A stretch of 63,536 bases of DNA, filler included, from an uncultured Methanosarcinales archaeon (GCA_964535955.1; 6 parts of 6 records of this genome joined end to end with filler, not necessarily neighbours in it); one strand, 5' to 3'. Counted from the whole stretch's first letter, positions 1-29,880 are shown. The notes: a model not told the origin generated them from the letters alone. Numbers and translations: made by a program.

Positions 1-3000
1 CCGCATTGATTATCATCAGTACATGTTCTTGTTTGTAAACCATCAATACAATCATTCCATGAACCACATTCCCAATCTTCAACACAACATTCTTGTTCTT
101 CTTCAGGTTTATTTTCTATTGTGCCACATTTATTAAAGTCAAAACATGCTCTTGTTTGTGAACTATTTTCACATTCAGTCCAATCACCGCAGAGCCAGTC
201 TTCTATACAACCTTCAACAGTTATTAACATTGATTCAGTATCTTCTCCACCTTTTGAATCAGTTACTGTGAATGTGGCATTATGTATACCATAATCCTGA
301 TTATTAGGACTCCATTTATATGTTTGTGATATTGTTGAATAATCTGCTGGTGACCCAGAACCAGTACCACTTACAAAAGGAATTAATTTATCAAAATCAG
401 ATGCAATATCCATAGAATCTTTATCATAATCTTTTGCACTAATAATTACTGTTAATTCTTCACCTACTTCAACACTTTTATCTTCAATAGGATCAAAGAT
501 AGGATCTTGGTTAACATCCCTTACTTCTATCACAAAACTCTCTGTTACTTGCGAATCACCATCATCTAACATAAATTCAATTGTATAATTTCCTGCATCA
601 TCATAACCAGGTGTCCATTCAAAGATGCACATTGCTTGTGTCTTACCTGTTTCTTTAGTTTCATTAATACTATATTCACAATCATGAAGAATAGCTCCTT
701 GTGGTCCATTAACCAAACTCATCTCAAAGTCAGTTTCATCATCATCATCAAATGCAAAAAATGGCATCCATATTGGTTGATTTTCTTCCCACCAGAAATC
801 TTCAACATCATCCATTCTAGGTTCTCTGTTTATATTATTGATTGTTAATGCAAACTCCTCTATCACACTCACATAAGGATCACTAACAGTAACTGTTAGA
901 TTATATATACCAGCATTTTCATAATCTGTCTGCCATGTGATTTCACCATCACTATCTATGTCCATTCCAATAGGATCAGATTCTAGAGCATAAGTAAGAG
1001 TATCATCATCAGGATCTTCTGCATCAACTTTATATAAAAATAATTCATTTTCATCAACAGATAAACTATTGATTTTAAAATTATCATAATCTATATGCCC
1101 AACTCCATTGTGTCCTGTCCTTGTTGATACACCAAACTTAAATGGTGGTGAAATTTCATTTGAAGTATAACTAAATTTTTCATTATTAGGATTTATAAAA
1201 TTTACATTTACAGAATCATTTTGAAAAATTAATTTTACTTGATATGTTCCATAAATATTACCTACAGCACTTTCCCCATTCCAAAAACCAACATTTCCAC
1301 AAGTAGCATGACCATTACAAACGTTTCCTAACATAAGATCTAAAGGATTGTTATTAATAGTTAGTCTGCTTAAAATATTTCCATCACCTTCTAAATAATT
1401 AACTTCATATTCAATTATATCTCCACTTTCAAAATCGTGATCCATGCTTAATAGAATTACTTTATTTGATGGTGATAATTGAGCAGTATGATAAACATCT
1501 TTATTTAAATCAACATAATGTTCATCAACAAATGGCCAGTTTTCATGATCAGTTGTTTCATCCCAGAAATCAGTATCTAAATCATTATCAAAGTTTTCAG
1601 ATAGTCTAAATTTTGTATTGATAATTGGCTCTCTATTAACATCCCTTACTTCTATCACAAAACTCTCTGTTACTTGCGAATCATTATCACTTAACATAAA
1701 TTCAATAGTATGATTACCAGCAGAATCATAATCAGGAGTCCATTCAAATATGCACGATGCTTGTGTCTTATCTGTTTCTTTGCTCTCATTGATACTATAT
1801 TCACAATTACCAAAAACAGCATCTTCTGGTCCATTAACCATTGTCATTTCAAGATCTTGTTCAATATCATCATCAAATGCAAAAAATGGCATCCATATTG
1901 GTTGATTTTCTTCCCACCAGAAATCTTCAACATCATCCATTCTAGGTTCTCTGTTTATATTATTGATTGTTAATATAAATGATCTTCCATCACTAAAATT
2001 CCCATCACTTGCAGATACAATGATAATATATTCATCACTATCCTCATAACCAGTTTCCCACCTAAACAAACTTTCATCAACTTGATCCTGTACAAAATTC
2101 TCATTATCTACAGAATAAGTCAAAGTATCATTATCTGGATCATGAACCTCAATGATGTGTTCAGATTCAATACTTAAACCACCAGGACCGCCACCAATTG
2201 AACCACCCCCTTCTGCAGGAGGAACATCCAACACATTAAATTTTAATAAAACAACATCAGTCTCATCAACTGTGATGTCTTCAACAATTCCAACAATTGG
2301 TGCCCTGTTAGTTGTTATTGAATTAAATATAACTGAGGATGGTGCATGGGCAAGAGAACCTTCGTAAATAAAATCAATATCATCTTCTTCCTCACTAGAT
2401 GTAAAGTATAACATATTGCCTATGCTATCATAATAATACCCAAGATCATAGATAATTTCATCATCAGATTGAGATGTTTTTGTAGCAGAAGTTAACCTGT
2501 CCAAATCATCATATTCATAATCAATCTGTTCATCATGAATTTCATCATTAATAATCACAATATTATTTTTTGCATCCAAGTCATAGTTTAAATCCTGCAG
2601 ATCAGAAGTACTAATTCTATTTATCTTATAATTATCAGGATTATATTCATAATTAGATGTCAAAGCATTCTCATAAACCCTTGAAACCAATTGATTATCT
2701 TCATTATACTGTTGATCTGAAACAACATCACTTACAGTCTTAATATTTCCAACATTATCATATGTGTAATCAATAATTTCTCCATTAGGAAGTGTCTTTG
2801 ACAACACAGCATCAGCAGAGTCATAAGTATAAGTTGTAACAAAATCAATGCCATTGATAGTTTTCTTGTCTTCAACAATCCTCAACCTTTGATCATAAGT
2901 GAACTCTTTGACAATATCATTAGTCTCTATTTTTGATAAAGTACCTACAACACCTGCATCATATCTATAAGATTCTGATATAGACCCTACTGTTTTGGTT

Positions 3001-6000
3001 TTTAACCTATCTAGTTCATCATATGATAACTCTATTTGATTACCTTTATTATCTGCCTGCTTTACAAGATTACCTGATGCATCATATTCATAAGTCCAAA
3101 TACCAAGGTCTGGATCATCCATCATTGTTTTTCTACCTAAAGTATCATAATTATAATCAAACTCATTACCTTGACTATCATTGATCTTAATAAGATTACC
3201 AACAACATCATAAGTGTAATAAGTATCAAATATGTTTCCTTTGTTATATTCCCTAACATTGACAACATTTCCAAAAAGATCTTCAATATAATCAATCCTA
3301 TGGTCATTTTCATCAAAGAAAGAAGTTAATTGTCTAAAACGATCTATCTCAACATTTGTATTATCAGGATTAATAATCTTTTTAACCTTGCCAAGAGCAT
3401 CATATTCATAATTAGTTTTTTTGACCTGGGAATTAGGTGAAGAATAACTATTACTAGACATCAGATAAGGGTTTGATTCCCATTTCAGACCGCCAACAAG
3501 ATTATAATAAAAATCCTTAGTAATATGATCAGATCCTGAGGAATCAGATTTAATTTGCACAACATTTCCAGAACCATCATAATAATAATGTTGTTCTGAT
3601 ACCATATCATCATTTTGTTTTTGTTTTACAATTACTGATTCTGGTACATTTCCATCTAGATTATAGACTATTTCACTGGTAGGTTTTGATTCTGTATCGT
3701 AAGGTAAGATATCTTTTATTTTTCTGCCAAATTGGTCATATTTGTATTCTGTTTTATATCCATTAGGATCTGTTGCAGACAACACATTGCCTGTTGCAAG
3801 ATTATATTCAAAAACCATTTCCTGATCCTTAGCATTTGTTGTTTTTATTGGAAATGTATGTGTTGAGTCATACTCATATTCTGTTGTTTTTCTTCTTGCA
3901 TTTGTTTCTGAAACTCTATTCCCATATGCATCATATCCATAAGTCATGACAGGATTTTCTCCAGTATCTAACCAAGACTCAGACCTTATCAAGTCACCTA
4001 ATTCATTATACTCAAAATAAGATTCTGACACTTTTGTTGAATCATCTGAACTTCTTAAATATGTTTTTGTTGGTATATTAAGTATCCATTTATCAGTATC
4101 ATAAGTATATTCTGTATAAGAATATCTTTCATCATCATCTACAGAAATTTCACCCAACATAGAAGTCTTTTCCACATTACCATAATCATCATATTCATAA
4201 TCAGTTTGAGTTATTACTGGATTTTCTGCAACACCATCATAATTATAATTCTTTGTTGAATCTAGAGTAACTACATGATAACCATTAGTGGTTGTTGAAG
4301 ATGCTTCATTCTCATTTTTAAAATAAGGCCTGTTTTTATCGTCAAACATTTCTGTCTTATATTCCATACCTTTTTTAGAATCATCCTGGTGATAATAATG
4401 TTTTACTTTGCTATTATCGGGTCTTAATTCTTCAACATAACCAAAACCTCTAAATTCTTTATCACCAAAATCATAATAACCACCTGTATAAGTATAAAAA
4501 GTTTTAATTGATGGTGTTTTTGAACATACTTGATTACTGCTACCAGACACAACCATATCAGCTTTCCATACATGCATGCTAGCTGAAGTACCACTTTTAA
4601 AATCAACATAATCATTTAATGCAGGGCCTGTTGTTTGAGCTTTGCAAGCACCATTTTCATCATCAGGATTGCCAGGTTCATAACCATCTTCTACATCAGG
4701 TATCGCATAAAAACTATATCTCCAAGTATTTCCATAACATTCTGTTGTACATGTTGAATAACCAGAACATCCTTTTTCAGGAGGCATACAATAACCTATC
4801 CAAGTTCCACCAATATTGTCTGCAGATTCATAATCATTACCAGAGTCTTTATCATCAATCAAATAATGATTATTTTTTCTTAACAAACCATGTGCATCAC
4901 TTCCACAATCCCCACCCCAAGGTTGCTCACTTAGACCAGACATCTCCCAATATAAAACAATAACAGCATCTGTTTCAGAAGTGTCTTCATCATAAATTCT
5001 ACTTTCATCAACAATATTATCATCAGACGAAGTCTCAACCTTATAACATTTACCATCTTCAAATCCAGTTGAAAACAAAGGCATACCTATTGCATCCTGA
5101 GGAAGATCATAATTAGACCAAGGATTAGTACTTTCCATTACTTTAGTCCAATCACCGCAAGATCTTATTTCACAGATTCTTACACAAGCATCATCACCAG
5201 AACAATCTATTCCTTTATCATCATACCCATTAGGACAAGAAGCAGGAACACAGTCTATGTTAGAGTTCACATCATGATGATCTAACATATCAACCAATGA
5301 GATAGATTTAACAATCCATTGATTAAACCCTATCTTATTATTCTCTGTTTCACCAGAATTAAAATATTCTATCTTATGTTTTGCACCTGCAGAATTTTTT
5401 ACTTCATCTAATAAAAACTGCTTGTTTGCTTTATTCAGCCACACTAGTTTAGTTATTGAACCAGAATTACTTTTCATTCTTACAATGTCTGCAGAACCAT
5501 CGCCATTTATATCAACCATCCTTGTGCCTTCATTACTTCCATCATTCATTACAAACTCAGCAAACTCAGGAATGTCCCATGAAGAATCTGACACAAGATT
5601 ATTACCATGATTTATAAAAGCTGCTCTTGTTGTTTCTCTTCCTTGCAGTACATCTGCTAACCCATCACCATTAATGTCTGAAAACCTTATACCTTCATCA
5701 TCATTACCAGCATCCACATTATCTGGCAGGTTACTAATTGGCCAGCTACTTGTTTGCTCCCAACCATTACCAGTATTCAACCATAATTCTTTGCTATAAT
5801 CATCATCAGACCTATAAACATCTGTCAATCCATCACCATTCATGTCAATCAACCTGACACCTTCATCATCACCATCTGATTCAATAAAATAAATATTTGA
5901 AGGTAAGTTCCAATTACTTGCACTTGACCAGCCACCATTCTGATTATTGATCCATGCTTGTTTACTTTGTCCTTGTTTTGCTTTCAAAACATCAACATAA

Positions 6001-7439
6001 CCATCACCATTAAGATCAACCAACCTTACACCTTCATCAACATATTTATAATTATTACTATTGTCCTCTATAGTTACAAATTTAGTTACAAAATCATGAG
6101 ATGACAAACTCCAACCATTTCCAGTATTTGTCCAGATATCATAATCTTCATCATCAGCATCTTCATCATAAACTCCTTGTATAAGATCAGGATAACCATC
6201 ACCATTATAATCTCCTAACCTAACACCCATATCAAAAAATATATTGGTATCGTATCTATCTATAAATTTTGCAGGAGGTGCAAAAGTATCATCCCTATTA
6301 AAATCACCATTAAACAAATTTAAAAAAGCATATTTACCAGCCCAAACATGATGAAAATTTGCAACTATATCAACCATTCCATCTCGATTTATATCAATTA
6401 ATCTTGAACCACCGTCCAGATTATTATAAGAAAAATATGCAGGAGGTAATTTATTTTCAATATCTCTATCTCTTTCCCAGCCTTTTTCAAGGTTTGTGTA
6501 TGAAAATGTTGTAGAAGGTAATGATCCGCCATCTTTACCATATTCTGTTATTGACGAGATATATGTCCTAGTTGCAATATTATTATTAGTATAACCAATA
6601 CCATATTTTCTAATCATAGTATTATCATAATATATCCTTATCTCAGTTAATCTACTCTTTCTTGTTATTTTTTGTCCGCCTTGAAATATTGTCCAAGATC
6701 TAGGAAGAGCAACATAACCAAACTCTATTCTTCTTTTCTTATCATTATTATATTCAATCTTATGGATATAAGTTACACCTGTTTCACCAGAAGAAGGATC
6801 TTCCAAATAAGAATAATAAATATTATTATCATGAGTGTCTGTTACCTGATCAAGATACCATCTCCAAACATAATTGTGCTGGTTTGACATGAGTTCTGAA
6901 TCAGAATCATAACCAAACCTATATGTTGTTCCATCTTTTGTCTTAACTTCCCAATATTCATTTTTAGTATTGTCTCCTCCTGATAATTTTTTAATTGAAA
7001 GATAAGACTCAATTTTGGTATGATATCTTCCATCAGTTGAATCATAGACAAGTTCATGTGACGCACCACTTAATATAAGGTTAAACTTATGTTTAGAAGT
7101 GTCACCAGGAAAATCATTAGTATCTCTTTGTATATAAGATTGTGTTAATGCCCAACCACTACCTACTAATTCAGGGTATGACTTTGAGTTAAGACTACTA
7201 TAACTTAAACTTAAACCAGGTTGCAGACCATTTGTGCCGGGCATAACCTGAATAGGATAAGAATAAACAGCTGCACCAGTATTAATATTAGCAGACAATA
7301 ATCCTGATGAAGGCAATGATGCTGGAGAACTTGGTTTATTAATATAATCTCTATAAGGATCTGCTGATGTGAAACAACTCAAACTAATCAAGATTAATAT
7401 AAAGATTACAAGTGTTTTTGATTGGTTGTTTTGTTTCAT
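1..7439 (-). CDS. Giant secreted SpvB/FG-GAP/YD-repeat (TcB-RHS-like) shell protein, cassette B; runs off left edge (about 2479 codons visible)
   Basis: Missing from the ORF track because no stop lies in the window. ATG at 7439 overlaps the upstream TGA (ATGA). Reads MKQNNQSKTLVIFILILISLSCFTSADPY (signal peptide), then NTGAAVYSYPIQVMPGTNGLQPGLSLSY (SpvB-type N-terminus), DxNGDG FG-GAP repeats, YTGGYYDFGDKEFRGF, and YD repeats ending YDSIGNML...LAHAP near 2340. These are followed by cadherin/Ig-like and CxEDWxC repeats. Frame at base 1 agrees with the start. Paralog of 11430..18515. Confidence 0.9.
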   Translation of the reverse strand, partial: MKQNNQSKTLVIFILILISLSCFTSADPYRDYINKPSSPASLPSSGLLSANINTGAAVYSYPIQVMPGTNGLQPGLSLSYSSLNSKSYPELVGSGWALTQSYIQRDTNDFPGDTSKHKFNLILSGASHELVYDSTDGRYHTKIESYLSIKKLSGGDNTKNEYWEVKTKDGTTYRFGYDSDSELMSNQHNYVWRWYLDQVTDTHDNNIYYSYLEDPSSGETGVTYIHKIEYNNDKKRRIEFGYVALPRSWTIFQGGQKITRKSRLTEIRIYYDNTMIRKYGIGYTNNNIATRTYISSITEYGKDGGSLPSTTFSYTNLEKGWERDRDIENKLPPAYFSYNNLDGGSRLIDINRDGMVDIVANFHHVWAGKYAFLNLFNGDFNRDDTFAPPAKFIDRYDTNIFFDMGVRLGDYNGDGYPDLIQGVYDEDADDEDYDIWTNTGNGWSLSSHDFVTKFVTIEDNSNNYKYVDEGVRLVDLNGDGYVDVLKAKQGQSKQAWINNQNGGWSSASNWNLPSNIYFIESDGDDEGVRLIDMNGDGLTDVYRSDDDYSKELWLNTGNGWEQTSSWPISNLPDNVDAGNDDEGIRFSDINGDGLADVLQGRETTRAAFINHGNNLVSDSSWDIPEFAEFVMNDGSNEGTRMVDINGDGSADIVRMKSNSGSITKLVWLNKANKQFLLDEVKNSAGAKHKIEYFNSGETENNKIGFNQWIVKSISLVDMLDHHDVNSNIDCVPASCPNGYDDKGIDCSGDDACVRICEIRSCGDWTKVMESTNPWSNYDLPQDAIGMPLFSTGFEDGKCYKVETSSDDNIVDESRIYDEDTSETDAVIVLYWEMSGLSEQPWGGDCGSDAHGLLRKNNHYLIDDKDSGNDYESADNIGGTWIGYCMPPEKGCSGYSTCTTECYGNTWRYSFYAIPDVEDGYEPGNPDDENGACKAQTTGPALNDYVDFKSGTSASMHVWKADMVVSGSSNQVCSKTPSIKTFYTYTGGYYDFGDKEFRGFGYVEELRPDNSKVKHYYHQDDSKKGMEYKTEMFDDKNRPYFKNENEASSTTTNGYHVVTLDSTKNYNYDGVAENPVITQTDYEYDDYGNVEKTSMLGEISVDDDERYSYTEYTYDTDKWILNIPTKTYLRSSDDSTKVSESYFEYNELGDLIRSESWLDTGENPVMTYGYDAYGNRVSETNARRKTTEYEYDSTHTFPIKTTNAKDQEMVFEYNLATGNVLSATDPNGYKTEYKYDQFGRKIKDILPYDTESKPTSEIVYNLDGNVPESVIVKQKQNDDMVSEQHYYYDGSGNVVQIKSDSSGSDHITKDFYYNLVGGLKWESNPYLMSSNSYSSPNSQVKKTNYEYDALGKVKKIINPDNTNVEIDRFRQLTSFFDENDHRIDYIEDLFGNVVNVREYNKGNIFDTYYTYDVVGNLIKINDSQGNEFDYNYDTLGRKTMMDDPDLGIWTYEYDASGNLVKQADNKGNQIELSYDELDRLKTKTVGSISESYRYDAGVVGTLSKIETNDIVKEFTYDQRLRIVEDKKTINGIDFVTTYTYDSADAVLSKTLPNGEIIDYTYDNVGNIKTVSDVVSDQQYNEDNQLVSRVYENALTSNYEYNPDNYKINRISTSDLQDLNYDLDAKNNIVIINDEIHDEQIDYEYDDLDRLTSATKTSQSDDEIIYDLGYYYDSIGNMLYFTSSEEEDDIDFIYEGSLAHAPSSVIFNSITTNRAPIVGIVEDITVDETDVVLLKFNVLDVPPAEGGGSIGGGPGGLSIESEHIIEVHDPDNDTLTYSVDNENFVQDQVDESLFRWETGYEDSDEYIIIVSASDGNFSDGRSFILTINNINREPRMDDVEDFWWEENQPIWMPFFAFDDDIEQDLEMTMVNGPEDAVFGNCEYSINESKETDKTQASCIFEWTPDYDSAGNHTIEFMLSDNDSQVTESFVIEVRDVNREPIINTKFRLSENFDNDLDTDFWDETTDHENWPFVDEHYVDLNKDVYHTAQLSPSNKVILLSMDHDFESGDIIEYEVNYLEGDGNILSRLTINNNPLDLMLGNVCNGHATCGNVGFWNGESAVGNIYGTYQVKLIFQNDSVNVNFINPNNEKFSYTSNEISPPFKFGVSTRTGHNGVGHIDYDNFKINSLSVDENELFLYKVDAEDPDDDTLTYALESDPIGMDIDSDGEITWQTDYENAGIYNLTVTVSDPYVSVIEEFALTINNINREPRMDDVEDFWWEENQPIWMPFFAFDDDDETDFEMSLVNGPQGAILHDCEYSINETKETGKTQAMCIFEWTPGYDDAGNYTIEFMLDDGDSQVTESFVIEVRDVNQDPIFDPIEDKSVEVGEELTVIISAKDYDKDSMDIASDFDKLIPFVSGTGSGSPADYSTISQTYKWSPNNQDYGIHNATFTVTDSKGGEDTESMLITVEGCIEDWLCGDWTECENSSQTRACFDFNKCGTIENKPEEEQECCVEDWECGSWNDCIDGLQTRTCTDDNQC
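511..849. repeat. 339-bp intragenic direct repeat, copy 1 (duplicated Ig/cadherin-like domain)
   Basis: Aligns without gaps to 1636..1974 (offset 1125); 511-558 and 741-849 identical, middle diverged. Confidence 0.9.
1636..1974. repeat. 339-bp intragenic direct repeat, copy 2
   Basis: Partner of 511..849. Confidence 0.9.
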
Positions 7440-10162: not shown

Positions 10163-10262
10163 CTTTCCACCCCAAACATCTAAAACCCTACTTTAATGCA
10201 ATATTTCAAACTTAATAAACTTTACGATTCAAACCATTGAATAATCACAGACTTCGTGTAAT

Positions 10263-11252
10263 TTATTCATGATTTGATGATATTGATTGTGATTCCCTAT
10301 ACTGTTTAACATGTTCCAGTACTGCTGCTTCTCCAAGCCTATATATTTCCTCTGATACTTTTAATATTTGGATAACAGGTTTTAAACCAGATCTTACAGC
10401 TTGTTTTAAATCTTCATCTTGCCTTATAATATCAGCAATCTCTGGACTATGTTTATAATAAAAGTCAACTAAGTCTTTACCAATTGGATTTGGTAGCAAA
10501 CATTCATCTCTAAATCTACAAAGATATTTAACTTCTTCAGCCATAGCAGTTCCATATGCAGCAGTTGCTATAAAACAACCTCCACCACCAGCAGAAGTAG
10601 AACTACCAGTGCCAGGTGTACCACCTGTACTAGTATCAACACCCCAAGCACTTGCCTGAGTATCATAAGCAGCAACAATCTCATTACCAGTCATACCATT
10701 AGACATATCAAACATTACACATTCAGGAATTCCATTTTTTTCATTTGATTCACTTATATTTTTATAAAAATTCCTGATAGCAACATTATCACATCTTACA
10801 GAAAATAATATTCCATCTTGATCATCTGTTTGATTTTGTTCATTAGAATTATGAAACATGAAATAAATTGTATCTGTTTGTCCAGTATTCTTATCCTCAT
10901 AAGACATCAAAGCGGTAGGCACCATCATACCCAAATCTTGAACATTATCCAAGTCTAACACATTATGACCTTCTGCATATGGTGTTCTATCAGGTCCATT
11001 TATAGTCAATGTAATGCCTTTTGCTTGCTCAAGATAAGCAATAGCTTCATTTACATAATTAATATCAGTGTCCTGCTTCATATCTACCATTGATGGCTTA
11101 TTTGCTTTCCCAAACACATAATTCTTTAACATATCTTTAGCACTTGGCTGTGTATTTGCAGGAGCACCTGTTAATATAGTATATAATAATACACTTCCTC
11201 CAAATAAAGTCAAAGCAATTTGATTCAAACTTGTTTTCATATTTCCTAACAT
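10263..11252 (-). CDS. Exported protein with CFI-box-CTERM domain
   Basis: N-terminal hydrophobic segment; Gly/Ser/Thr linker, then GGGGCFIATAAYGT...LCRFRDECL...FYYKHSPEIADII. Start could be 11240. Confidence 0.85.
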   Translation of the reverse strand: MLGNMKTSLNQIALTLFGGSVLLYTILTGAPANTQPSAKDMLKNYVFGKANKPSMVDMKQDTDINYVNEAIAYLEQAKGITLTINGPDRTPYAEGHNVLDLDNVQDLGMMVPTALMSYEDKNTGQTDTIYFMFHNSNEQNQTDDQDGILFSVRCDNVAIRNFYKNISESNEKNGIPECVMFDMSNGMTGNEIVAAYDTQASAWGVDTSTGGTPGTGSSTSAGGGGCFIATAAYGTAMAEEVKYLCRFRDECLLPNPIGKDLVDFYYKHSPEIADIIRQDEDLKQAVRSGLKPVIQILKVSEEIYRLGEAAVLEHVKQYRESQSISSNHE

Positions 11253-11429
11253 TATAACATCCCTCGCATAGTATTTATATTAATAATATTGTATTTATAT
11301 AATAAATTCTATTATTTAAATACATTACCACCCCAACACCGTGATTTTCATGTATGGTAGAAATAGAGCTTAATAAAGATTAGGGTAATTATAATCCCTG
11401 TTTTAGAATATACACATTACACAATACAA

Positions 11430-14400
11430 TCAAACACTCACACCCAATTCCCCAACATTATTACTTTCATCCTTTTCCTTGACTAAGTTATCAGGATCAA
11501 CAGTAAGAACCATTGTATAACTACCAGGATTATCATAATTACCAGTTGAATACACATTTGCTGATTGGTCAGGCCTTAATGTTAATGATTCTGTACTTGA
11601 AGGATCTGATGTAGCACCGCCTGTGTCAAGCTCCCACCCAACATTTTCTGCAACAGCATCACCACTATTCTTTATCTTGAACTTGACAACAACAATATTG
11701 CCAAAATAAGTTTTTACTCCAAAATCTTCAACAACAAGATCAGGTTTTAAATTAGGCACAGAAATAAACTCGCAAACAGCATTACATGTTCTTGCATTTC
11801 TACACATATCATAAGTATTATCATCATTATCATCACAATCAGAATTTCTCATACACTCCATATTACATGATGAACTTTGTTTATTTTTACAGTATGAGTT
11901 ACATGTTTTTGCTAAGAAACAAATATCTTTGGTATTAGACTTTCCATCATCGCAATCAGAATTACTTTCACATTTCACATTACATGGTTTATTCTGACAC
12001 TTTGCATTGCACTTGCCTGGGTTGATGCAATAATCTTTTGTAGATGAAACATAATCATTACAATCAGAATCAGTGTTACAAGCAATATTACATTTATCAA
12101 GATCTTCAATAACTAAAAACTCTTCTGTTGCAGGATCATAATCATAATTAAATCCTCTACCAGTTCCAAAACTACATTCACATTCATAAATACTATCATC
12201 TTTACTACATTGTGTATGATACTCATCATCTCCAGTTCTAAAACTGCATGAATCACCACAACTAAGAACTCGTTCATCAAAATAATAACTTTGTTCTATG
12301 TTATCATAATCTTTTGCCTTGATCTTGACAGGCACACGTTCATCAAACACAATCTTAAACAAAGCATATGGATTTGCATACTTCTGTTTTTTACCAAACT
12401 TAACAACCGAATTAATCAACTCACCTGTATCATCATCTTCTACACCAATCTTCAACTTATAATCAGGTCCAGAATTTTCATTAATAACAACATCAATATC
12501 CTGTGAATCAGTCAAACCATTTGAATCTTTTAATGTCAGTGTTAATGTAACTGTTCCATGTTTATCTTCAACAGGATAAAACCTCAGGACATCTGTATTA
12601 GAGTTAAGAGAAAATTGTACAATCTTTCTAAGTTCAGCAATTATATCAGCTGTATAATCACCTAAACCTTCAATCTCTTTAAATTCTACTTTCCACCTTA
12701 ATTTCCTACCACTGTCTTGAGCATCATTTTCATAGTCAGTCAGATCAATCATCCATGGTTCAGAATTCATATCCACTTCTTGATTAGGCACATCAGGTGA
12801 AATATATGGTGGTGTATTACCAGCAATATCATTTACAGTGATTTTCATTTCTTCATAATCTTTTGCACCTCTTAGATCTGTAACAGTAAACAAAACATTA
12901 TAAATCCCAGCATCATCTAATCCAGGCTGCCATCTATACTTTCTTCTAATTTCATTACCATAATCATAGTTTTCTGCTGTTTGTAATTGAGAAAAATTAT
13001 TTGTTAATGTCAATTCATCATCTTTATCTTCATCACTTGCTCTTACCCAAATATCTAATATTTGATTTTCATCTATTTCTCTATCATCAATTTCTTCAAA
13101 AACAGGAGGATTGTTTGGCATTATACATTCTTGTTCTTCTTCTGGCTTTTGTTCCATTGTACCACACTGATTATCATCAGTACATATTCTTGATTGTAAA
13201 CTATCATCACATTCAGGCCAATCACTACAAGTCCAATCTTCAGAACAACATTCTTGTGATATTTGTGGTTTATGTTTTGTTGTGTCGCACTGATTAAGAT
13301 CAGAACAAGATCTAGTTTGTTGTCCACCTATACACTCTGACCATTGTGTGCATTGCCAGTTTTCTGTACAGGGAATCCCCTGAGAATTTGTTATTATTTG
13401 TGTTGGTGTATGAGCTAAATTATCATATAAGAATTCTATGTTTCCATCATCAGCATACAAATAAAGCATATTACCAATACTATCATATTCATATGATAAA
13501 TCGTATAATAGATTGTCATTACCATACCTTATTTTCTGAGCCTTTATTAATCTATCAAGATCATCATATTCAAATTCTTCTTTACCATTATGAACAAGGT
13601 CTTCGATTAACATAACATTTCCTACATTATCATATGTATAAGCTAAGCTTTGAACACCACTAGTTATTATATTACTTACTCTATAATTTAATTGATTGTA
13701 ATAATAATTATTTTTTAAATTATTTTTAAAAGTCCTCGCAACAGGCATATTCATTACATTATATCTTATATCTGTAATTATATCATTAACATTTTCAAGT
13801 CTACCAACAGAATCATATGTATAAACAATAGTTTCATTATTTGGTAGGATTTCTTTTGTTATTTGATCCATAGTATTATATTCATACACTGTCAGAAAGT
13901 TTAGATTATCTATTTTTCTTTTATCTTTTATGATTCTATATCTTTGGTCATAATCAAATTCTTTAGTAATGTCATTTGTTTGGATTTTTGATAAAGTCCC
14001 AAGAGTATTAAGATCGTAAGTATATGTTTCTAATGTATCTGCTGAGGTTTTTGTTTTTAATCTATATAATTCATCATATGTTAATGTTACTTGATTATTT
14101 TCATTGTCTATTTGTTTAATTAAGTTTCCTGACACATCATATTCATATATCCAAGTACCTAAGTCAGGATCTTCTAATTTTGTTTTTCTTCCTAATGAAT
14201 CATATGTATGTTTTATTTTATTATTCTCATTATCTGTTATTTGTATTAGATTTCCTCTTGTGTCGTATTTATAATTTGTAGTATATATTTCATCATTGTC
14301 ATATTCTTTGATTTGTATTATGTTTCCATAAGCATCTTTTAAATAATCAATCCTATTATCATTTTCATCATATAATTCTGTTAAGTAATATTTATGTTTA

Positions 14401-17400
14401 CTTACTATCTTTCCTTGATCAGGCTTTACTACCCAAAATATTCTGTCTAAAGTATCATAGAAATATCTTGTTTTAGCAACTGCACTCCTGATTCCCACAT
14501 AATCTTCTGTATCAGAATAATAGAAATTTGTTTCATAATTTAACCTGTATAAATTATCATAATAATAATCTTTTGTTATAAACTTTTGATCAGAAGTTTC
14601 TGTTTTTGTTTGCATAACATTCCCAATTCCATCATAATAATAATAACTATCCAAGGTACTATCTTCACTTTGTTTTTGCTTAACTATTGCTCTTTCTGGT
14701 AAAGATCCATCAAAATCATAGATTATTTCTTTTGAAGGTTTATCTTCTGTATCATAAGGCAAGATTTCTTTTATTCTTCTACTAAATTGATCATATTTAT
14801 ATTCTGTTTTATAATTATTAGGATCTGTTACAGACAACAAATTACCAGTTCCAAAATCATATTCAGATATTGTTTCATGATTTTTTACATTTATTGATTT
14901 TATTGGAAAAGTATGTGTTGAATCATATTCATATTCTAATGTGTTTTGATTAGAATCTGTTACTGAAATTTGATTTCCGTATGAATCATATTCATAAGTT
15001 GTTGTTGGATTTTGTCCTGTACTTAACCAGGATTCAGATTTAACTAGGCTACCATATTCATCATATGTAAAATAAGATTCTGAGACTTTTGTTGAATCAT
15101 CTGAACCTTTTACATAAGTTTTTGTTGGCCTATTTAAGATCCATTTATTGGTGTCATAAGTGTATTCATTATATGAATACTTTTCATCACCACTTATTGA
15201 TGTATCACCTAAGTATGATGTCTTTACTATGTTGTTATAATCATCATATTGAAAATTTATTTGTGTAGTTACTGGATTATTATCCTTGAATTCTGTAAGA
15301 ATTTCTTTTGTTGAATCTAATTTTACTGTGTAGTAATCATTATTTTTTATTGAGAAAAAATCATTTTCTGTTGTTTTAGATATACCTCCATATGACACCT
15401 CTGTTTTATATTCCATTCCATTTTTTGCATAATCTTGGTGAAACCAATGATGTATTGTTCTGTCACTAGGTTTTATTTCCTTTACATAATTAAATCCTCT
15501 GAACTCTTTATCTTCATAATCATATAATCCTCCTTCGTAGGAATAGACTGTTTGTAAACTTTTTATTTTTTGACATGTTTGATGATTTGTTGATGTTATT
15601 GTTAATGGTGCACTACTAATTATCATTCCTACATCTCTATTGCTCTTAAAGTCAATATATTCTGTATCTGCATAATATGAAGAAGTTCTTGATTTACATG
15701 CTCCTTTGTTATCATCAGGATCTAAGGGTTCATAGTCCTGGGGCATGTCTGGTACAGCCACTATCTCAAATGACCATGTATTTCCATAACATTCAGTTGT
15801 GCATGGTTCTGTAAAACCTGAGCATCCTTTTGAAGGGGGTATGCAATTACCACTCCATCTTCCACCTAATCTATCTGCAGTATTATAGTCTTCACCATTA
15901 TCTGAATCATCTATTAGATAATAATAACGTCTATTTAGAACTGAGCCTGTTGAATCAGGTTCACAGTTTCCACCCCAAGGCTGTTGGTCATGATCTGACA
16001 TTTCCCAGTACAGTGCAAGCACTGAATCAGTTTCATATCTATCTTCATAATCTATGTCACTATCATCTACTATGTTATCATCTGACCATGTAGCAACACT
16101 ATAACATATGTCTTCTTCAAAATTAGAATAATTAAATAATGGTACACTGTATGCATGCCTTTCAAAATCATATTCATTCCAAGAATTCTCTTGTTCAAAA
16201 ATAGTACTCCATTGACCACTGCATCCCATCTTCACACATTTTCTTTGACAAACACTGCTTGATGAAGTACAATCAATTCCTGTATCTTGATAACCATAAG
16301 GACAAGATGAAGGAACACAATCTAAAGAAGTTGCTGTACTATGATGCTCTGTTGCATCTAGATAATTAATAGCCAAAACTATCCATTGATTAAAACCCAT
16401 ATCATTATCAGGTGTTATTGCAGAATTGTAATATCTTATCTTGAACTGACCTCCACTAGGCAAGTTTACTTCATCTAATAAGAATTGTTGTTGTGCTTTA
16501 TTTTTCCAAGCAAGTTTAAAATTTCCACCTTCACGTTTTATTCTAACAATATCTACTGAACCATCACCATCAATATCAGCTAATCTTGTACCCTCATTAT
16601 TACCATTACTCATTACAAACTCTGCAAATTCTGGTACTTCCCATGATGAATCATATGTAAATTTCTCTCCTTGGTTTAAATATGTGTCTCTTCTAGATGA
16701 TCTAGCAAGAACAAAGTCTGGCAACCCATCACCATTAATATCTGATATCCTCATGCCTTCATCATCATTAGATGTATCAACATTATCTGGTAAAATATTT
16801 ATTGGCCAATCATTTGTTTCTTCCCACCCATTTCCTGTGTTTAACCATAAATTTTTATTATCCTTATCATCAGATCTGTACACATCTGTTAAACCATCAC
16901 CATTTATATCAATTAATCTTACTCCTTCATCATCTCCATCTGATTCTACAAAATATATATCTGATGGTAGTTTCCATTGACTTGAACTTGACCAACCACC
17001 ATTTTGATTATTAATCCATGCTTTTTTACTATCTCTATCTTTTGCTTTTAGAACATCAACATAACCATCACCATTTAAATCAACTAATCTTACCCCTTCA
17101 TCAACAGATTTGTATGGATGCTCTTCTGCAGTTGTAAAGATTGTTACAAAATCATCATTTGTTTTTCTCCAACCACTACCAGTGTTTTCCCAAATATAAT
17201 CATATTCATCATCACCATCTTCATCATACAATCCTTGAATTAAATCAGGATAACCATCTCCATTATAATCACCGATTCTTACACCAGAATCAATAGGTGT
17301 GTCATCATATTTTAATATGAATGCAGCAGTTTCTGGAGGTTCATATGAACTGTCGATTGTAAAATCTGTTTTATATGAATTAATGTATGCTGTTTGTTCA

Positions 17401-18515
17401 ACATTCTTATAATCTGAGTTACGCAATATGTCTGTTATTCCGTCTCTATTTATATCTATTAATCTTGAACCACCGTCTGCGCCATTATGTGAAAAATAAG
17501 CACTACTAGGCAGTTTTTGTTCAAGATCTTCATCTCTTTCCCAACCTTTTTCAAAATCTTTATAAGAAAAAGTTGTAGCAGGCAATGATCCTCCATCTTT
17601 ACCATATTCTGTTATGGATGAAATATATGTTCTTGTAGTAACATAATTATTTGTATAACCTATTGCATATTTTTTTATTAAATTGTCATTTGCATAAGTT
17701 TTTATTTCACTTAATCTTCTAGTTCTTTTTATCTTTTGTCCATCTTGAAATATTGTCCATGATCTTGGAAGAGAATTATAACTAAATTTTATTTTTCTTG
17801 TTTTATCATTATTATATTCTATCTTATCTAGATATGTTACACCGGTTTCATAAGAGTAAGGGTTTTCTTTATAGGTATAAAATATTTTATTTCCATGCAC
17901 ATCTATTACTTGATCAAGATACCATCTCCAAATATAATTATGTTGATTAGATTTAAGTTCTGAATCTAAGTTATAACCAAACAAATATCTTGTTCCATCT
18001 TTTGACTTTACTTCCCAATATTCATTCTGATCATTATTTCCACCTGATAATTTTTTTATTGACAAATATGACTCTATTGTTGTATGATATCTTCCATCAG
18101 ACGAATCATAAACAAGTTCGTGTGATGCACCATCAAGTATCAAATTAAATTTATGTTTAGATGTGTCAGAAGGGAAATTATCTGTGTCTCTTTGAACATA
18201 AGATTGTGTTAATGACCATCCACTTCCTGTTAGTTCTGGGTAACTGTTTTTATTATAACTACTATAACCCAAATTTAAACCTGGTTGTAAACCATTCGTT
18301 CCTGGTGGAACCATAAATGGATAAGAATAAACAGCTGCGCCTGTATTAGTACTTGTTGTTAGTGTGCCTGATGACGGCAATGATGCAGGACTTGTTGGTT
18401 TGTTTATGTTTGATTTGTATGGATCTGCTGATGTAAGTGAAGCTATGATAAATATGAGCAATAAAATAAATACAAGTTTTTTTATTGTTTTTGTTTGATT
18501 TTGATTATTTTTCAT
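11430..18515 (-). CDS. Giant secreted SpvB/FG-GAP/YD-repeat shell protein, cassette A, 2361 aa, with C-terminal Cys-rich, cadherin/Ig-like and CARDB-like domains and no RHS core
   Basis: Signal peptide; TGAAVYSYPFMVPPGTNGLQP; WRWYLDQVIDVHGN; multiple DING/DLNGDG repeats; YEGGLYDYEDKEFRGF; many YxYD repeats ending YDSIGNML...LAHTP; final KPDLVV...VDPDNLVKEKDESNN (CARDB-like). No PxxxxDPxG motif. Confidence 0.92.
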   Translation of the reverse strand: MKNNQNQTKTIKKLVFILLLIFIIASLTSADPYKSNINKPTSPASLPSSGTLTTSTNTGAAVYSYPFMVPPGTNGLQPGLNLGYSSYNKNSYPELTGSGWSLTQSYVQRDTDNFPSDTSKHKFNLILDGASHELVYDSSDGRYHTTIESYLSIKKLSGGNNDQNEYWEVKSKDGTRYLFGYNLDSELKSNQHNYIWRWYLDQVIDVHGNKIFYTYKENPYSYETGVTYLDKIEYNNDKTRKIKFSYNSLPRSWTIFQDGQKIKRTRRLSEIKTYANDNLIKKYAIGYTNNYVTTRTYISSITEYGKDGGSLPATTFSYKDFEKGWERDEDLEQKLPSSAYFSHNGADGGSRLIDINRDGITDILRNSDYKNVEQTAYINSYKTDFTIDSSYEPPETAAFILKYDDTPIDSGVRIGDYNGDGYPDLIQGLYDEDGDDEYDYIWENTGSGWRKTNDDFVTIFTTAEEHPYKSVDEGVRLVDLNGDGYVDVLKAKDRDSKKAWINNQNGGWSSSSQWKLPSDIYFVESDGDDEGVRLIDINGDGLTDVYRSDDKDNKNLWLNTGNGWEETNDWPINILPDNVDTSNDDEGMRISDINGDGLPDFVLARSSRRDTYLNQGEKFTYDSSWEVPEFAEFVMSNGNNEGTRLADIDGDGSVDIVRIKREGGNFKLAWKNKAQQQFLLDEVNLPSGGQFKIRYYNSAITPDNDMGFNQWIVLAINYLDATEHHSTATSLDCVPSSCPYGYQDTGIDCTSSSSVCQRKCVKMGCSGQWSTIFEQENSWNEYDFERHAYSVPLFNYSNFEEDICYSVATWSDDNIVDDSDIDYEDRYETDSVLALYWEMSDHDQQPWGGNCEPDSTGSVLNRRYYYLIDDSDNGEDYNTADRLGGRWSGNCIPPSKGCSGFTEPCTTECYGNTWSFEIVAVPDMPQDYEPLDPDDNKGACKSRTSSYYADTEYIDFKSNRDVGMIISSAPLTITSTNHQTCQKIKSLQTVYSYEGGLYDYEDKEFRGFNYVKEIKPSDRTIHHWFHQDYAKNGMEYKTEVSYGGISKTTENDFFSIKNNDYYTVKLDSTKEILTEFKDNNPVTTQINFQYDDYNNIVKTSYLGDTSISGDEKYSYNEYTYDTNKWILNRPTKTYVKGSDDSTKVSESYFTYDEYGSLVKSESWLSTGQNPTTTYEYDSYGNQISVTDSNQNTLEYEYDSTHTFPIKSINVKNHETISEYDFGTGNLLSVTDPNNYKTEYKYDQFSRRIKEILPYDTEDKPSKEIIYDFDGSLPERAIVKQKQSEDSTLDSYYYYDGIGNVMQTKTETSDQKFITKDYYYDNLYRLNYETNFYYSDTEDYVGIRSAVAKTRYFYDTLDRIFWVVKPDQGKIVSKHKYYLTELYDENDNRIDYLKDAYGNIIQIKEYDNDEIYTTNYKYDTRGNLIQITDNENNKIKHTYDSLGRKTKLEDPDLGTWIYEYDVSGNLIKQIDNENNQVTLTYDELYRLKTKTSADTLETYTYDLNTLGTLSKIQTNDITKEFDYDQRYRIIKDKRKIDNLNFLTVYEYNTMDQITKEILPNNETIVYTYDSVGRLENVNDIITDIRYNVMNMPVARTFKNNLKNNYYYNQLNYRVSNIITSGVQSLAYTYDNVGNVMLIEDLVHNGKEEFEYDDLDRLIKAQKIRYGNDNLLYDLSYEYDSIGNMLYLYADDGNIEFLYDNLAHTPTQIITNSQGIPCTENWQCTQWSECIGGQQTRSCSDLNQCDTTKHKPQISQECCSEDWTCSDWPECDDSLQSRICTDDNQCGTMEQKPEEEQECIMPNNPPVFEEIDDREIDENQILDIWVRASDEDKDDELTLTNNFSQLQTAENYDYGNEIRRKYRWQPGLDDAGIYNVLFTVTDLRGAKDYEEMKITVNDIAGNTPPYISPDVPNQEVDMNSEPWMIDLTDYENDAQDSGRKLRWKVEFKEIEGLGDYTADIIAELRKIVQFSLNSNTDVLRFYPVEDKHGTVTLTLTLKDSNGLTDSQDIDVVINENSGPDYKLKIGVEDDDTGELINSVVKFGKKQKYANPYALFKIVFDERVPVKIKAKDYDNIEQSYYFDERVLSCGDSCSFRTGDDEYHTQCSKDDSIYECECSFGTGRGFNYDYDPATEEFLVIEDLDKCNIACNTDSDCNDYVSSTKDYCINPGKCNAKCQNKPCNVKCESNSDCDDGKSNTKDICFLAKTCNSYCKNKQSSSCNMECMRNSDCDDNDDNTYDMCRNARTCNAVCEFISVPNLKPDLVVEDFGVKTYFGNIVVVKFKIKNSGDAVAENVGWELDTGGATSDPSSTESLTLRPDQSANVYSTGNYDNPGSYTMVLTVDPDNLVKEKDESNNVGELGVSV

Positions 18516-18522
18516 TTTGTTA

Positions 18523-19086
18523 TTAGCTTTTCATTTTGTTTAATGATTCTTTTGCAATTTTGCCTATTAGTGGTTCTGTGAATTGGAGATAATTTTTAAG
18601 ATTTTGAAGTTTTTCATTAACTTGATTAAATCTGATATGTCCTAATGCAGAAATTATACTACTAATTAGTGTAATGTCTTTTGTGTTTTTATAATTGATT
18701 TTATCTTCGCTTTTAATGAAATCATTATAATAATATTTATCTAGAATTCTCTCCAAATATGTACCACAACCTATTATGTTTAAGTGTTCTATAATCCCTA
18801 TTATTGGTATAAGTCTTTGAGGTTGGTTTAAATTATTAATTAATAATTCTTTAATAAATATTGTTGTACTTTTATCTTTTTTATTCATTAGAGTTCTAAT
18901 CAACACATTAAAAACTTGGTGATCAAGACTATTTTTAGTTAATAAGATTTTTATTTCATTTTGATATTCATTTTTTGAAATTTCTTTGAAAATTTCTTTT
19001 AATTCATTACCCTTAGTAGTTTTATTTCTAGTAAGAACATGTTTCAATTCATTTACTAATTCAATAAATTTTTTTTGTTTGTTCAT
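18523..19086 (-). CDS. Putative immunity protein (cytoplasmic, HEAT-repeat-like)
   Basis: Starts 2 bp after the toxin stop; no signal peptide; helical SIISALGHI...EPLIGKIAKESLNKM pattern. Role inferred from position. Confidence 0.6.
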   Translation of the reverse strand: MNKQKKFIELVNELKHVLTRNKTTKGNELKEIFKEISKNEYQNEIKILLTKNSLDHQVFNVLIRTLMNKKDKSTTIFIKELLINNLNQPQRLIPIIGIIEHLNIIGCGTYLERILDKYYYNDFIKSEDKINYKNTKDITLISSIISALGHIRFNQVNEKLQNLKNYLQFTEPLIGKIAKESLNKMKS

Positions 19087-19088
19087 TT

Positions 19089-20624
19089 TTATCTTAAATC
19101 ATTAATTAAATTATCTAATTTAAATGTTGCTTTGTTATACACGCTTAGTTCATAAGGCGTTAGTGGAATTTCTTTAGGTACAATATGAGTAACATCTGCA
19201 GTGACTGTGTTTTTATTATAGACTAAACTTGACCGAGCAGTTCTTCTCATACCATTCATAACTATCTCTCTGCCATGTAAATTCCAAACTTCAGTTGCCT
19301 CGGGGATATTGTTTAAACCTACTTCATAACCTCTGGTTTCCATTACTGCTTGTTTATCAAGCAATGGATGTGTTCCTCTTAATCGCTTTATAGGAATCTC
19401 TTGAGTACCTGTGCCTTTAACCTTATTTGAAGAAGATCCTCCACTACTAGCACCACCAAAAACAGCAGGTGTTCCTGTTATTGCAGCATGAGCTAAACCT
19501 ACTGAGCCTACACCTAAACCTATTGCACCACCTACTTGCGCACCAGTTGAAGTAGCTTCAAGTAAATTCTCAGTTATTGGAGCACCAGACATAACATTGC
19601 TTGTTGCTTGAGCAGCAGCACTACCCATTGCAGATGATGCAGCATAAGTTGAAGTGGTTCCTGCAAGATATCCAACCCCTGTGGCTCCGGTAAATACTGG
19701 CGAAACAATTCCAAATGTTGCAGCTCCCACTGCTCCTGCAGCTCCACCAATTAATGCACTTTTTCCAACTGCTCCCCAGTCCATTGAACTATCAAATAAA
19801 GAAGCACCATTGTATATTTGTTTTATAACTGAATAACCAGCACCAATTACTGCTCCAATTGCAGCACCAAATAATATGTGCCAGAAATGGCCTGTACTAT
19901 CTACATATTTAACAGGATTATTCCTTGCATAACTATATCTATTCAATGATTGAGGATCATAAACATCAGGAATCGTTGTATCAGGCTGTGTAAAATGTCT
20001 TAAAAAAGGAGAATAGTAACGAGCATTATAATACATTAATGATGATTCTTTATCTTTTTCTTGTCCTGTGAATGTATATCTTGATTCTCCGCCTTCTAAT
20101 GGTAAACCAAATGGTTTGTAAGTAGTTTCTTCAATTACTTCACCATCTTCATCTGTTACAATATGAGTGCTACCTAGATGATTAGGGTGATAGAATTTTA
20201 TATTATCATTATAATCTTTTTCTGCAGCTAAAGAAGATCCTTCATAATAAAAGATTGTATCTCTTTCTTGATTAGAATCTTTTTCTTTTATGAATCTACT
20301 AGAAACATAATATGTTGTCTTAGAATTACCATTTTGGCTATATAAAACTTTTTTTATTCTTTGACCAGATTCATCATAATAGTATTTTGATAATGTTCTT
20401 CCATTTACATTATTTTCTTTTACTTCAACTAATTGATTAAGCGAATTATAAACATAATATTCACCAACACCTAAAACAAGGTTGCCATTATCATCATATT
20501 CAAAATTGATTGTTTTTTGTTGATTTGCTGTTGTCTCTAAAGACTGTGCAAATGATAGAGGTACACATAAGACAAGTAAAATAAGAAATACTGCTATTAA
20601 ATTCAAAATTTTGTTTTTATTCAA
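19089..20624 (-). CDS. Secreted minimal RHS-core polymorphic toxin, cassette A, with divergent ParB-like tip
   Basis: TTG 20624 after a GGGGGTG RBS gives a signal peptide; then FEYDDNGNLV, YHPNHLGST, YYNARYYSP, NNPVKYVDSTG; Gly/Ala-rich hydrophobic segment; tip EIPIKRL...EIVMNGMRRTA. Confidence 0.88.
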   Translation of the reverse strand: MNKNKILNLIAVFLILLVLCVPLSFAQSLETTANQQKTINFEYDDNGNLVLGVGEYYVYNSLNQLVEVKENNVNGRTLSKYYYDESGQRIKKVLYSQNGNSKTTYYVSSRFIKEKDSNQERDTIFYYEGSSLAAEKDYNDNIKFYHPNHLGSTHIVTDEDGEVIEETTYKPFGLPLEGGESRYTFTGQEKDKESSLMYYNARYYSPFLRHFTQPDTTIPDVYDPQSLNRYSYARNNPVKYVDSTGHFWHILFGAAIGAVIGAGYSVIKQIYNGASLFDSSMDWGAVGKSALIGGAAGAVGAATFGIVSPVFTGATGVGYLAGTTSTYAASSAMGSAAAQATSNVMSGAPITENLLEATSTGAQVGGAIGLGVGSVGLAHAAITGTPAVFGGASSGGSSSNKVKGTGTQEIPIKRLRGTHPLLDKQAVMETRGYEVGLNNIPEATEVWNLHGREIVMNGMRRTARSSLVYNKNTVTADVTHIVPKEIPLTPYELSVYNKATFKLDNLINDLR

Positions 20625-20886
20625 AATACACCCCCAAAAACATCTTATACCCAAACAGAAGAAAAGGATATTAATAAATGTTTCTACACTAAAGTATATG
20701 TTTCATTTTATAAATCTTATTTACAAAAAATCGAATAATTTTCGAACATATAGAACAATTTAAACCCAAACATTCAATTCCTCAACATCAATACACTCAT
20801 TTATAAACAAAAACAATTAAATTTATAAATGAATAAGCCATAAGAATAAATATATTGCAATAAATTTAAAAGGAGGTCGACTTAAT

Positions 20887-21237: not shown

Positions 21238-21248
21238 GTAAATAAACA

Positions 21249-21346
21249 TTTTATTTTTTTTTATTTTTTTTATTATCTTTTTCTAATATGTTTTAATATT
21301 ATAATAACAATAAAGAATTCTTAAAAAAAAGAAAAAAAATAAAAAA
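21249..21346. terminator. Oligo-T terminator region between convergent genes
   Basis: T-tracts at 21249-21271 after the + gene and A-tracts at 21323-21346 after the - gene. Confidence 0.5.
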
Positions 21347-21350
21347 TTAA

Positions 21351-24277: not shown

Positions 24278-24319
24278 TTTCTTATTCACCTCTAAAATGT
24301 TAAGTATAAATATTAAATA

Positions 24320-29293: not shown

Positions 29294-29311
29294 TTATGAT
29301 TTTGTATTTGT

Positions 29312-29659: not shown

Positions 29660-29665
29660 TTTAAA

Positions 29666-29830: not shown

Positions 29831-29880
29831 AATAGAAAACAACAACATATATAAATAAGTAATTACACTAAAAACTATAT

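Follow-up and report, generated by a model that had tools for sequence, protein, structure and literature searches.

Within a 63,536-nucleotide (nt) stretch of DNA from an uncultured Methanosarcinales archaeon (GCA_964535955.1; records of this genome joined with filler, hereafter the window), two tandem gene cassettes, A and B, were found in which the shell, core, and toxin of one RHS toxin are divided over two open reading frames (ORFs), a giant and a small one. To judge from their sequences, each cassette probably encodes a two-chain SpvB/TcdB-type RHS polymorphic toxin with a late split, whose two Sec-exported chains form one cocoon. The contents of the chains are complementary: the core is carried by the small chains only, and the plug, propeller, and main shell are carried by the giant chains only.

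Both giant chains match FG-GAP, TcdB_toxin_midN, and RHS_repeat/YD_repeat_2x (repeats at E values of 1e-18 to 1e-30), and both begin with plain Sec-type signal peptides. SpvB scores above the cut-off in giant B only (3.3e-11); the SpvB-type N-terminus of giant A is assigned through its 60–82% identity per 100 amino acids (aa) to the N-terminus of giant B. Rhs_assc_core has no match in giant A or in the part of giant B that lies in the window. The two giants are 58% identical over 1721 aa, with identities of 37–82% per 100 aa up to residue 1700 and ~20% beyond. This drop falls directly after LAHTP in giant A (residues 1700–1704) and LAHAP in giant B (residues 1701–1705, nt 2340), and conservation across 36 giants stops at the same ...YxYDSIGNxL...HAP sequence. 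The domain matches and the position of the drop bear out an earlier note on this DNA, which had described both giants as SpvB/FG-GAP/YD proteins that stop at the same LAHxP point and lack an RHS core. The YD shell of giant A is homologous to the YD region of both coreless and fused relatives. Past the split, the C-terminal domains of the two giants occur in unrelated orders; the extension of giant A contains Cys-rich repeats, Big_9 (residues 1801–1892), and CARDB (residues 2257–2354).

The small chains carry the RHS core (TIGR03696/Rhs_assc_core at residues 179–256 of small A, 5e-20, and 548–625 of small B, 1.5e-21), with weak RHS/YD repeat matches in both. Their YD series opens with FEYDDNGNLV in small A and LVYDGNGNLV in small B, as the earlier note had reported in giving xxYDxNGNLV as the entry, followed by the core and PVKYxD(P/S)xG. 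Over 462 aa, small A matches small B at 54% identity; per 50 aa of small A, identity is 44–50% in the first 150 aa and 66–84% in the core and the following Gly/Ala-rich stretch (54% at 351–400). In an alignment of 40 small proteins, Y43, D44, G47, N48, D215, D242, and G245 are invariant. The core motif suggests self-cleavage after ...D(P/S)xG, the Asp residues at both catalytic positions being conserved.

Each small protein had been said to possess its own signal peptide. This holds for small A, whose N-terminus from TTG 20624 is a clear Sec-type signal peptide (MNKNKILNLIAVFLILLVLCVPLSFA/QS, the slash marking its end), and for small B only from ATT 10162. Begun at its first ATG (10102), small B has a truncated signal peptide, and the frame is open for 31 codons upstream (10103–10195), encoding signal-peptide n- and h-regions (...INKKRFIILIALFLVLIVIGMPVAFA/DTC). 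ATT 10162 is the only small B start ahead of the hydrophobic stretch and is homologous in position to the TTG of small A; a nearby ATG at 10179 is out of frame and precedes an A-run. A Cys-rich stretch of ~410 aa separates the putative signal peptide of small B from the YD entry.

A search of small A against 1.84 billion cluster representatives gave 1026 matches below 1e-30. Among the best 150, 131 are shorter than 600 aa, 15 span 600–1399 aa and carry N-terminal extensions like that of small B, and four reach at least 1400 aa. A signal-peptide-like hydrophobic N-terminus, judged by a crude, self-made hydrophobicity measure, was present in 111 of the 131 short relatives, and those listed pass directly from ...A/xx, the end of the hydrophobic N-terminus, to x-Y-D-x-N-G-N-L.

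The register of the split was determined by aligning each chain separately to single-chain relatives, the giant and small sequences never being concatenated. A scan of one genome per species with the alignment of 40 small proteins as the query retrieved 73 loci, in 36 of which the matched ORF also carries giant-type YD homology. In 24 of these 36 fused relatives, 13–39 aa separate the end of giant-type homology (near residue 700 of the 721-aa query, giant A ~1684) from the start of small-type homology (from query residue ~13, small A ~39). The pair in the window fills this gap with 33 aa, contributed by giant A 1685–1705 and mature small A 27–38. The other 12 comprise eleven proteins with larger gaps (85–1979 aa) and one short fragment with a 49-aa overlap. 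From the H of the PHAV-type motif to Y-D-x-N-G-N, 21 of 27 intact proteins have 12–18 residues, whereas the remaining six either bear inserts or are mis-hits of the pattern; in mature small A, 16 residues precede the invariant Y43. The protein from Methanosarcina sp. DH2 (locus L005) crosses the site as a single chain: FHAPVTYSVGNLGYDTNDLDYDANGNLID. These data place the break in one short turn, without missing or duplicated sequence, and thus agree with the expectation of the earlier note that alignment to intact relatives would reveal no large gap or overlap.

A predicted structure agrees with a late split. The AlphaFold2 model of small A 1–260, built from a 40-row alignment, has a mean predicted local distance difference test score (pLDDT) of 81, with a helix at 3–20 and strands at 49–205; residues 221–246, around the cleavage motif, are of low confidence. 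Compared with solved Rhs, Tc BC, teneurin, and SGS1 shells, the model gives a TM-score of 0.48–0.62 by query length and 0.06–0.26 by target length, the latter indicating that small A alone amounts to a fifth or less of a cocoon. Residues 38–246 correspond in sequence to the final ~200 residues of the RhsP (8h8b, 950–1152), RhsA (7q97, 1091–1292), and RHS2 (5kis_B, 479–689) shells, which puts the split ~470 residues later than the TcB/TcC boundary. In the reading supported here, an SpvB-type RHS toxin underwent natural fission, at a late point as proposed earlier, into a shell chain and a lid-plus-cargo chain.

The coreless form recurs in the clade. The giant A YD region was compared with its 120 best relatives: 67 belong to the SpvB/FG-GAP type, and a core is missing from 61 of those. 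Within this set, YD homology in 59 of the 61 extends up to the split site and is followed by 6–1254 aa of other sequence, and 51 of the 59 display H[ASTG][PVIL] at the site. The 53 other RHS proteins divide into 46 with and seven without a core. In all six fused SpvB-type proteins, the two homology blocks are set apart by a non-YD stretch of 110–400 aa, which consists, depending on the protein, of a Pro-rich linker, an Ig-like domain, repeats of Cys-rich or lectin-like type, or beta-sandwich domains, and locus L011 is likewise insert-bearing at the split site. In another Methanosarcinales locus (L002), the giant stops 11 aa past MHSP, and the next gene (4-nt overlap) encodes a signal peptide, 590 aa including Laminin_G_3, and then the YD entry and core. 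Together with the inserts of the fused proteins, this locus indicates that a variable binding-type module can take any of three positions: inserted within the chain, trailing the shell chain, or heading the lid chain. In these sequences, the HAP turn is a hot spot that tolerates interruption, and the split form is the norm in this SpvB-type clade as sampled by the best 120 relatives.

Accessory domains are likewise found on either chain. The Cys-rich insert of giant A is missing from fused relatives such as P0016 and is homologous to N-terminal extensions of small chains in L006, P0210, and P0251 (E values of 7e-16 to 8e-12); the same accessory domain is thus placed on either partner chain in different lineages, and the LamG domain of L002 is on the second chain. 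As a separate observation, a Cys-rich C-x-x-x-W-x-C...Q-T-R-x-C module (repeat family D8) is common to 1–209 and 13162–13370 with 72% nt identity. It forms the far C-terminal end of giant B and sits just past the split in giant A, two placements that point to domain shuffling in the extensions.

The two genes are also neighbors elsewhere, in seven fetched loci and three Woesearchaeota records, as would be expected from the earlier proposal of a functional pair. A small gene with a signal peptide lies upstream of a coreless giant in Nitrospirae (L001), Thermodesulfovibrionia (L003), Desulfosudis (L004), Methanosarcinales (L006), and Woesearchaeota (L007), and in L002 and L047 the giant lies upstream with 4-nt overlaps. 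Of the nine loci with the best scores, six are split, two are fused (L005 and L009), and one is degenerate (L008); the pair extends beyond archaea to metagenome-assembled genomes (MAGs) of Nitrospirota and Desulfobacterota. In the three Woesearchaeota records, gene order was inferred from accession order: the small and giant accessions are 3 apart, and a second small gene comes 2 after one giant. By an indirect same-contig proxy that compares the best 120 of each protein list, 12 of 63 coreless giants match a listed small protein in exact longest-contig size, as against none of six fused and none of 50 other RHS proteins. A miniature version was observed in a Nanoarchaeota MAG (L047, 7785–11281), in which a 735-aa protein with a signal peptide and only the last ~230 aa of the YD shell reaches the HAP motif and continues into a 465-aa tail; the next gene (4-nt overlap) encodes a 430-aa lid protein with a signal peptide, and N-truncated core remnants follow.

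Across eight small/giant pairs, the distances of the two chains correlate (Mantel r 0.91; 1 of 5000 permutations as high), a co-divergence that argues against free exchange of cartridges and not for binding. The notion of a constant targeting shell with an exchangeable toxin cartridge, put forward in the earlier note, is not supported: A and B differ equally in shell and lid, and the display domains at the C-termini of the giants are unrelated in order.

The cargo of small A starts with a Gly/Ala-rich hydrophobic module (residues ~246–400, nt 19400–19889), followed by a C-terminal domain of ~110 aa. The module is the best-conserved part of small A versus small B (up to 84% per 50 aa), is common to many small relatives and to mosquito SGS1, and may have a role in membrane entry. 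The last ~110 aa of the two small chains are ~22% identical. The C-terminal domain of small A contains a weak ParB-like motif of the DGxGRxxR type (NGMRRTAR), and the cargo of small B matches ParB_N below the cut-off (E 0.0047). ParB_N was the only hit when the cargo, the 187-aa ORF that follows small A, the small B N-extension, and the giant A Cys-rich insert were searched against Pfam at E values up to 5. Precomputed Pfam domains vary among the listed small relatives, PF02195 being listed for the small B cluster and three relatives. These weak ParB-like matches suggest that the C-terminal domain is probably a nuclease. Comparison of the small B C-terminus with PDB sequences gave chance-level matches only (E at least 0.028), the model of the small A toxin domain (133 aa, 7-row alignment) is unusable at a pLDDT of 41, and a search of the ESM Atlas with this domain returned unnamed clusters with a best score of 0.89, a lead only. 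The 187-aa ORF has no Pfam family and a single relative in a homolog search (55% identity); its position makes it a candidate immunity protein. An ORF of 135–219 aa lies directly 3' of the toxin gene in five of the seven split loci (L002, L004, L006, L007, and L047), and no ORF of this size directly follows the small gene at L001 or L003.

The mechanism that we propose combines these elements. The giant chain would be exported by Sec with its N-terminal plug region, FG-GAP propeller, and YD shell of ~720 aa, leave the shell at the conserved HAP turn, and continue into a variable series of binding-type domains. The small chain would be exported separately and, after cleavage of its signal peptide, start 16 residues before the next YD strand, supplying the last spiral hairpins and the RHS core, which would plug the shell and self-cleave after ...D(P/S)xG. 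It would also bring a cargo of ~265 aa, consisting of the Gly/Ala-rich hydrophobic module and a small, weakly ParB-like domain. The chains would join by beta-sheet continuation at the point where single-chain relatives loop out a domain, enclosing the cargo. Assembly outside the cytoplasm, encapsulation, the toxic nature of the cargo, an immunity role of the 187-aa ORF, and a route of the cargo into a target cell are all presumed in this scheme.

Several observations weigh against this two-chain cocoon. A full signal peptide on small B requires a noncanonical ATT start, and small B is not directly followed by an ORF of immunity size. The toxin domain falls into no significant family, so that a nuclease can only be surmised. 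Among the best 120 of each list, 46 of the 59 small proteins on contigs of at least 8 kb have no contig-size match to a listed giant, and the signal-peptide small gene of L012 is followed by 9.4 kb without a giant, the contig ending 121 nt upstream of it. Linkage and co-divergence are expected for any two co-inherited neighbors. Finally, we know of no precedent for assembly and cargo enclosure after separate Sec export.

Some of these points would suit genes that act independently, the giant being an RHS protein that has decayed and is retained as an adhesin or surface protein and the small protein a self-sufficient secreted mini-RHS toxin that uses its core only for self-cleavage. Small proteins do far outnumber the giants seen (the 1026 representatives at E < 1e-30), they occur at some loci without a visible giant (L012), and the small chain folds alone with confidence (pLDDT 81), though this confidence stems from the alignment. 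A decayed giant is nevertheless difficult to reconcile with a YD shell that is kept right to the split in 59 of the 61 coreless relatives, and the small chain begins exactly in register with what is missing. On its own the small chain is a cocoon fragment, too small to enclose 265 aa, and its adjacency to the giant recurs in archaea and bacteria, in both gene orders, and with overlapping stop and start codons. We therefore regard independence as unlikely, while according it more weight than the two alternatives that follow.

It is distinctly improbable that the small genes are classical orphan rhs cassettes, silent tips expressed after recombining into a full-length gene. True orphans do exist in more distant bacterial relatives (the arrays of L052, L019, L014, L054, and L062), where a start upstream of PHAV gives them a recombination tract in common with the main gene, and L006 and L047 have N-truncated remnants after their small genes. 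The small genes in the window, however, have start codons and signal peptides and lie upstream of giants without any core to displace; with their start past the HAP motif, they have no tract in common with the YD end of the giants. The direct DNA repeats within 1–21000 are only A/B paralogous stretches (72–85% identical) and internal repeats. An assembly or sequencing artifact, or the recent pseudogenization of a fused gene, would fit the metagenome-type assemblies and the giant genes of L001 and L003, each broken into two ORFs. We give it hardly any credence in view of the reversed gene order, the signal peptide on each chain, the two diverged copies in the window, and the same split in independent assemblies of different phyla, a recurrence that contradicts an artifact. 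The earlier note had observed that the small gene lies upstream of the giant, the reverse of the fused domain order, and had argued against a simple nonsense or frameshift break; gene order, signal peptides, and recurrence rule such a break out.

With somewhat less assurance than for the individual cassettes, but still on balance, we favor the view that the two-chain cocoon defines a large, as yet undescribed class of RHS toxins, distributed over DPANN archaea and methanogens as well as some members of Nitrospirota and Desulfobacterota: Sec-exported, closed outside the cytoplasm, broken at a hot spot of binding-domain insertion, and encoded by a linked pair that is physically separable. In the literature searched and in passages of PMC3482391, PMC7861908, PMC13018210, and PMC6642349, no description was found of a split at the HAP turn, of a lid chain with a signal peptide, or of the predominance of such a form throughout a clade; a further study, on archaeal polymorphic toxins (Makarova et al. 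2019, mBio), may bear on this novelty.

RHS and Tc cocoons are the standard case of toxic cargo enclosed by the protein to which it belongs. If the two-chain cocoon is correct, the last three or four hairpins and the plug can be added in trans, this addition is possible after export of both chains, and the HAP turn is a permissive surface site. These points bear on how Sec-dependent RHS toxins fold around cargo and on the surface arming of host-dependent DPANN archaea. For annotation, hundreds of 400–500-aa "RHS repeat-associated core" proteins and "VCBS/TcdB middle domain" giants would represent the two halves of one system and not fragments.

The features of the two cassettes are collected in Table 1. 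All six cassette ORFs are encoded on the minus strand and would be transcribed in the order small A, 187-aa ORF, giant A, 329-aa ORF, small B, giant B, with a 19-nt overlap between the 3' end of small B and the start of giant B. A scan of 7000–21400 for sigma-70 promoters and terminators, a tool not made for archaea, gave counts at the level of shuffled sequence. The setting is archaeal and AT-rich: G+C content is ~31%, the window also encodes LonB with an archaeal LID domain and an archaeal A24 prepilin peptidase (Pfam), and the closest named homologs are from Woesearchaeota, Pacearchaeota, Micrarchaeota, and Nanoarchaeota. Pfam searches returned no TcA families in the six cassette ORFs or in 28 other ORFs of the window, and no type VI secretion system (T6SS) families in the latter, in line with the earlier note.

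Table 1. Features of cassettes A and B, with nucleotide positions counted from the first letter of the window
Feature	Position (nt)	Residues or length	Strand	Remarks
Small A	19089–20654	511 aa from TTG 20624	minus	19089–20624 from TTG 20624; alternative start TTG 20654
Small A, predicted signal peptide		1–26	minus	from TTG 20624
Small A, predicted shell-completing part	19890–20546	27–245	minus	last YD hairpins and RHS core; ends PVKYVDSTG
Small A, cargo	19092–19889	246–511 (~265 aa)	minus	
187-aa ORF	18523–19086	187 aa	minus	starts 2 nt past small A stop
Giant A	11430–18515	2361 aa	minus	
Giant A, predicted SpvB/TcdB-type N-terminus and FG-GAP propeller		1–716	minus	
Giant A, Cys-rich insert	15564–16367	717–984 (716–990 for the nt range)	minus	between propeller and YD shell
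Giant A, YD shell	13404–15563	985–1704	minus	ends LAHTP
Giant A, post-split extension	11433–13403	1705–2361	minus	non-YD domains of display/adhesion type
329-aa ORF	10263–11252	329 aa	minus	between cassettes; CFI-box-CTERM domain
Small B	7436–10102	888 aa from ATG	minus	7436–10162, 908 aa from ATT
Small B, YD entry and RHS core	8231–8845		minus	ends PVKYSDPSG
Small B, cargo	7439–8230		minus	weak ParB_N match
Giant B	3–7454	at least 2484 aa	minus	C-terminus outside window
Giant B, post-split domains	3–2339		minus	He_PIG, Big_9, Cys-rich

The 329-aa protein has a signal-peptide-like N-terminus, and its CFI-box-CTERM domain corresponds to NF041770 (3e-26). Farther along the window, three very large predicted surface proteins without RHS repeats were noted: one with three Laminin_G_3 domains and MopE motifs (46571–53872, plus strand), one with MopE that is convergent with it (54067–61248, minus strand), and one with NHL repeats and MopE (61893–63536, plus strand). 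A HerA/DUF87-type ATPase with a TrmB-like C-terminal part (27215–31878, plus strand) adjoins the archaeal LonB, and an 846-aa protein rich in Cys, with a Stig1-like region and a zinc ribbon at its C-terminus (23594–26860, minus strand), adjoins a zinc-ribbon RDD-family membrane protein.

Among known systems, the Tc BC complex (TcB + TcC; TcdB2-TccC3, YenB-YenC2) also builds one RHS/YD cocoon from two polypeptides. To our knowledge, TcB/TcC is the sole known two-chain form, and it is made and closed in the cytoplasm; TcB and TcC are without signal peptides, and their assembly is cytoplasmic. The likeness extends to a large chain with an SpvB-type N-terminus, an FG-GAP-like propeller, and TcdB_toxin_midN, to a second chain that brings the RHS core and 200–400 aa of cargo, and to matches of small A with TccC3, TccC2, YenC2, and RHS2 in both sequence and fold. 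The shares of the two chains differ. Small A gives ~210–220 aa of shell plus core (RHS2 5kis_B from ~479 of ~690), meeting the last 120–210 residues of TccC3, YenC2, and RHS2, whereas the shell share of TcC is ~680 aa. Further differences are the mostly reversed gene order, the Sec signal peptides on both chains, the long array of domains past the shell, and the TcA partner, none being found among the ORFs of the window. In the part of PMC7861908 consulted, 97.2% of 2,528 TcC proteins are 851–1,050 aa long and the cargo is 201–400 aa in 97.9% of TcC, a range that includes the ~265-aa cargo of small A.

Single-chain SpvB/TcdB-type RHS toxins have the same domains, fused examples being P0016, P0024, P0030, P0059, P0108, L005, L015, L018, and others. 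Here, in contrast, the chain is broken between the HAP motif and the next YD strand, and the second part has gained a signal peptide. The available text of Zhang et al. 2012 (PMC3482391) describes a "TcdB/TcaC" class with a signal peptide, SpvB, an integrin-like propeller, RHS repeats, a core, and a polymorphic toxin, with Euryarchaeota included. Orphan rhs C-terminal cassettes are likewise short ORFs that encode a core plus a variable toxin and often precede an immunity gene; those of L052, L019, L014, L054, and L062 start upstream of PHAV and have no signal peptide, and the small genes of the window are opposite on both counts.

SPEARE of Nanohaloarchaeota, which belong to the DPANN archaea, places a Tc BC-like shell in a giant extracytoplasmic multi-adhesin protein; it differs in being a single polypeptide that is anchored in the membrane and has a restriction-enzyme part in the cytoplasm, and the portion of Hamm et al. 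2019 consulted (PMC6642349) describes no separate lid gene. Bacterial teneurin-like proteins are mostly Sec-dependent, according to the accessible part of PMC13018210. In teneurins, bacterial teneurin-like proteins, and SGS1, as proposed here, an RHS core closes a YD shell that is secreted or exposed at the surface; all three differ in being single chains with FN-plug/NHL instead of SpvB/FG-GAP N-terminal parts. The likeness to SGS1 extends to the cargo, the Gly-rich start of which in small A aligns with the C-terminal post-core region of SGS1 (8fjp, E 1e-18, residues 30–343).

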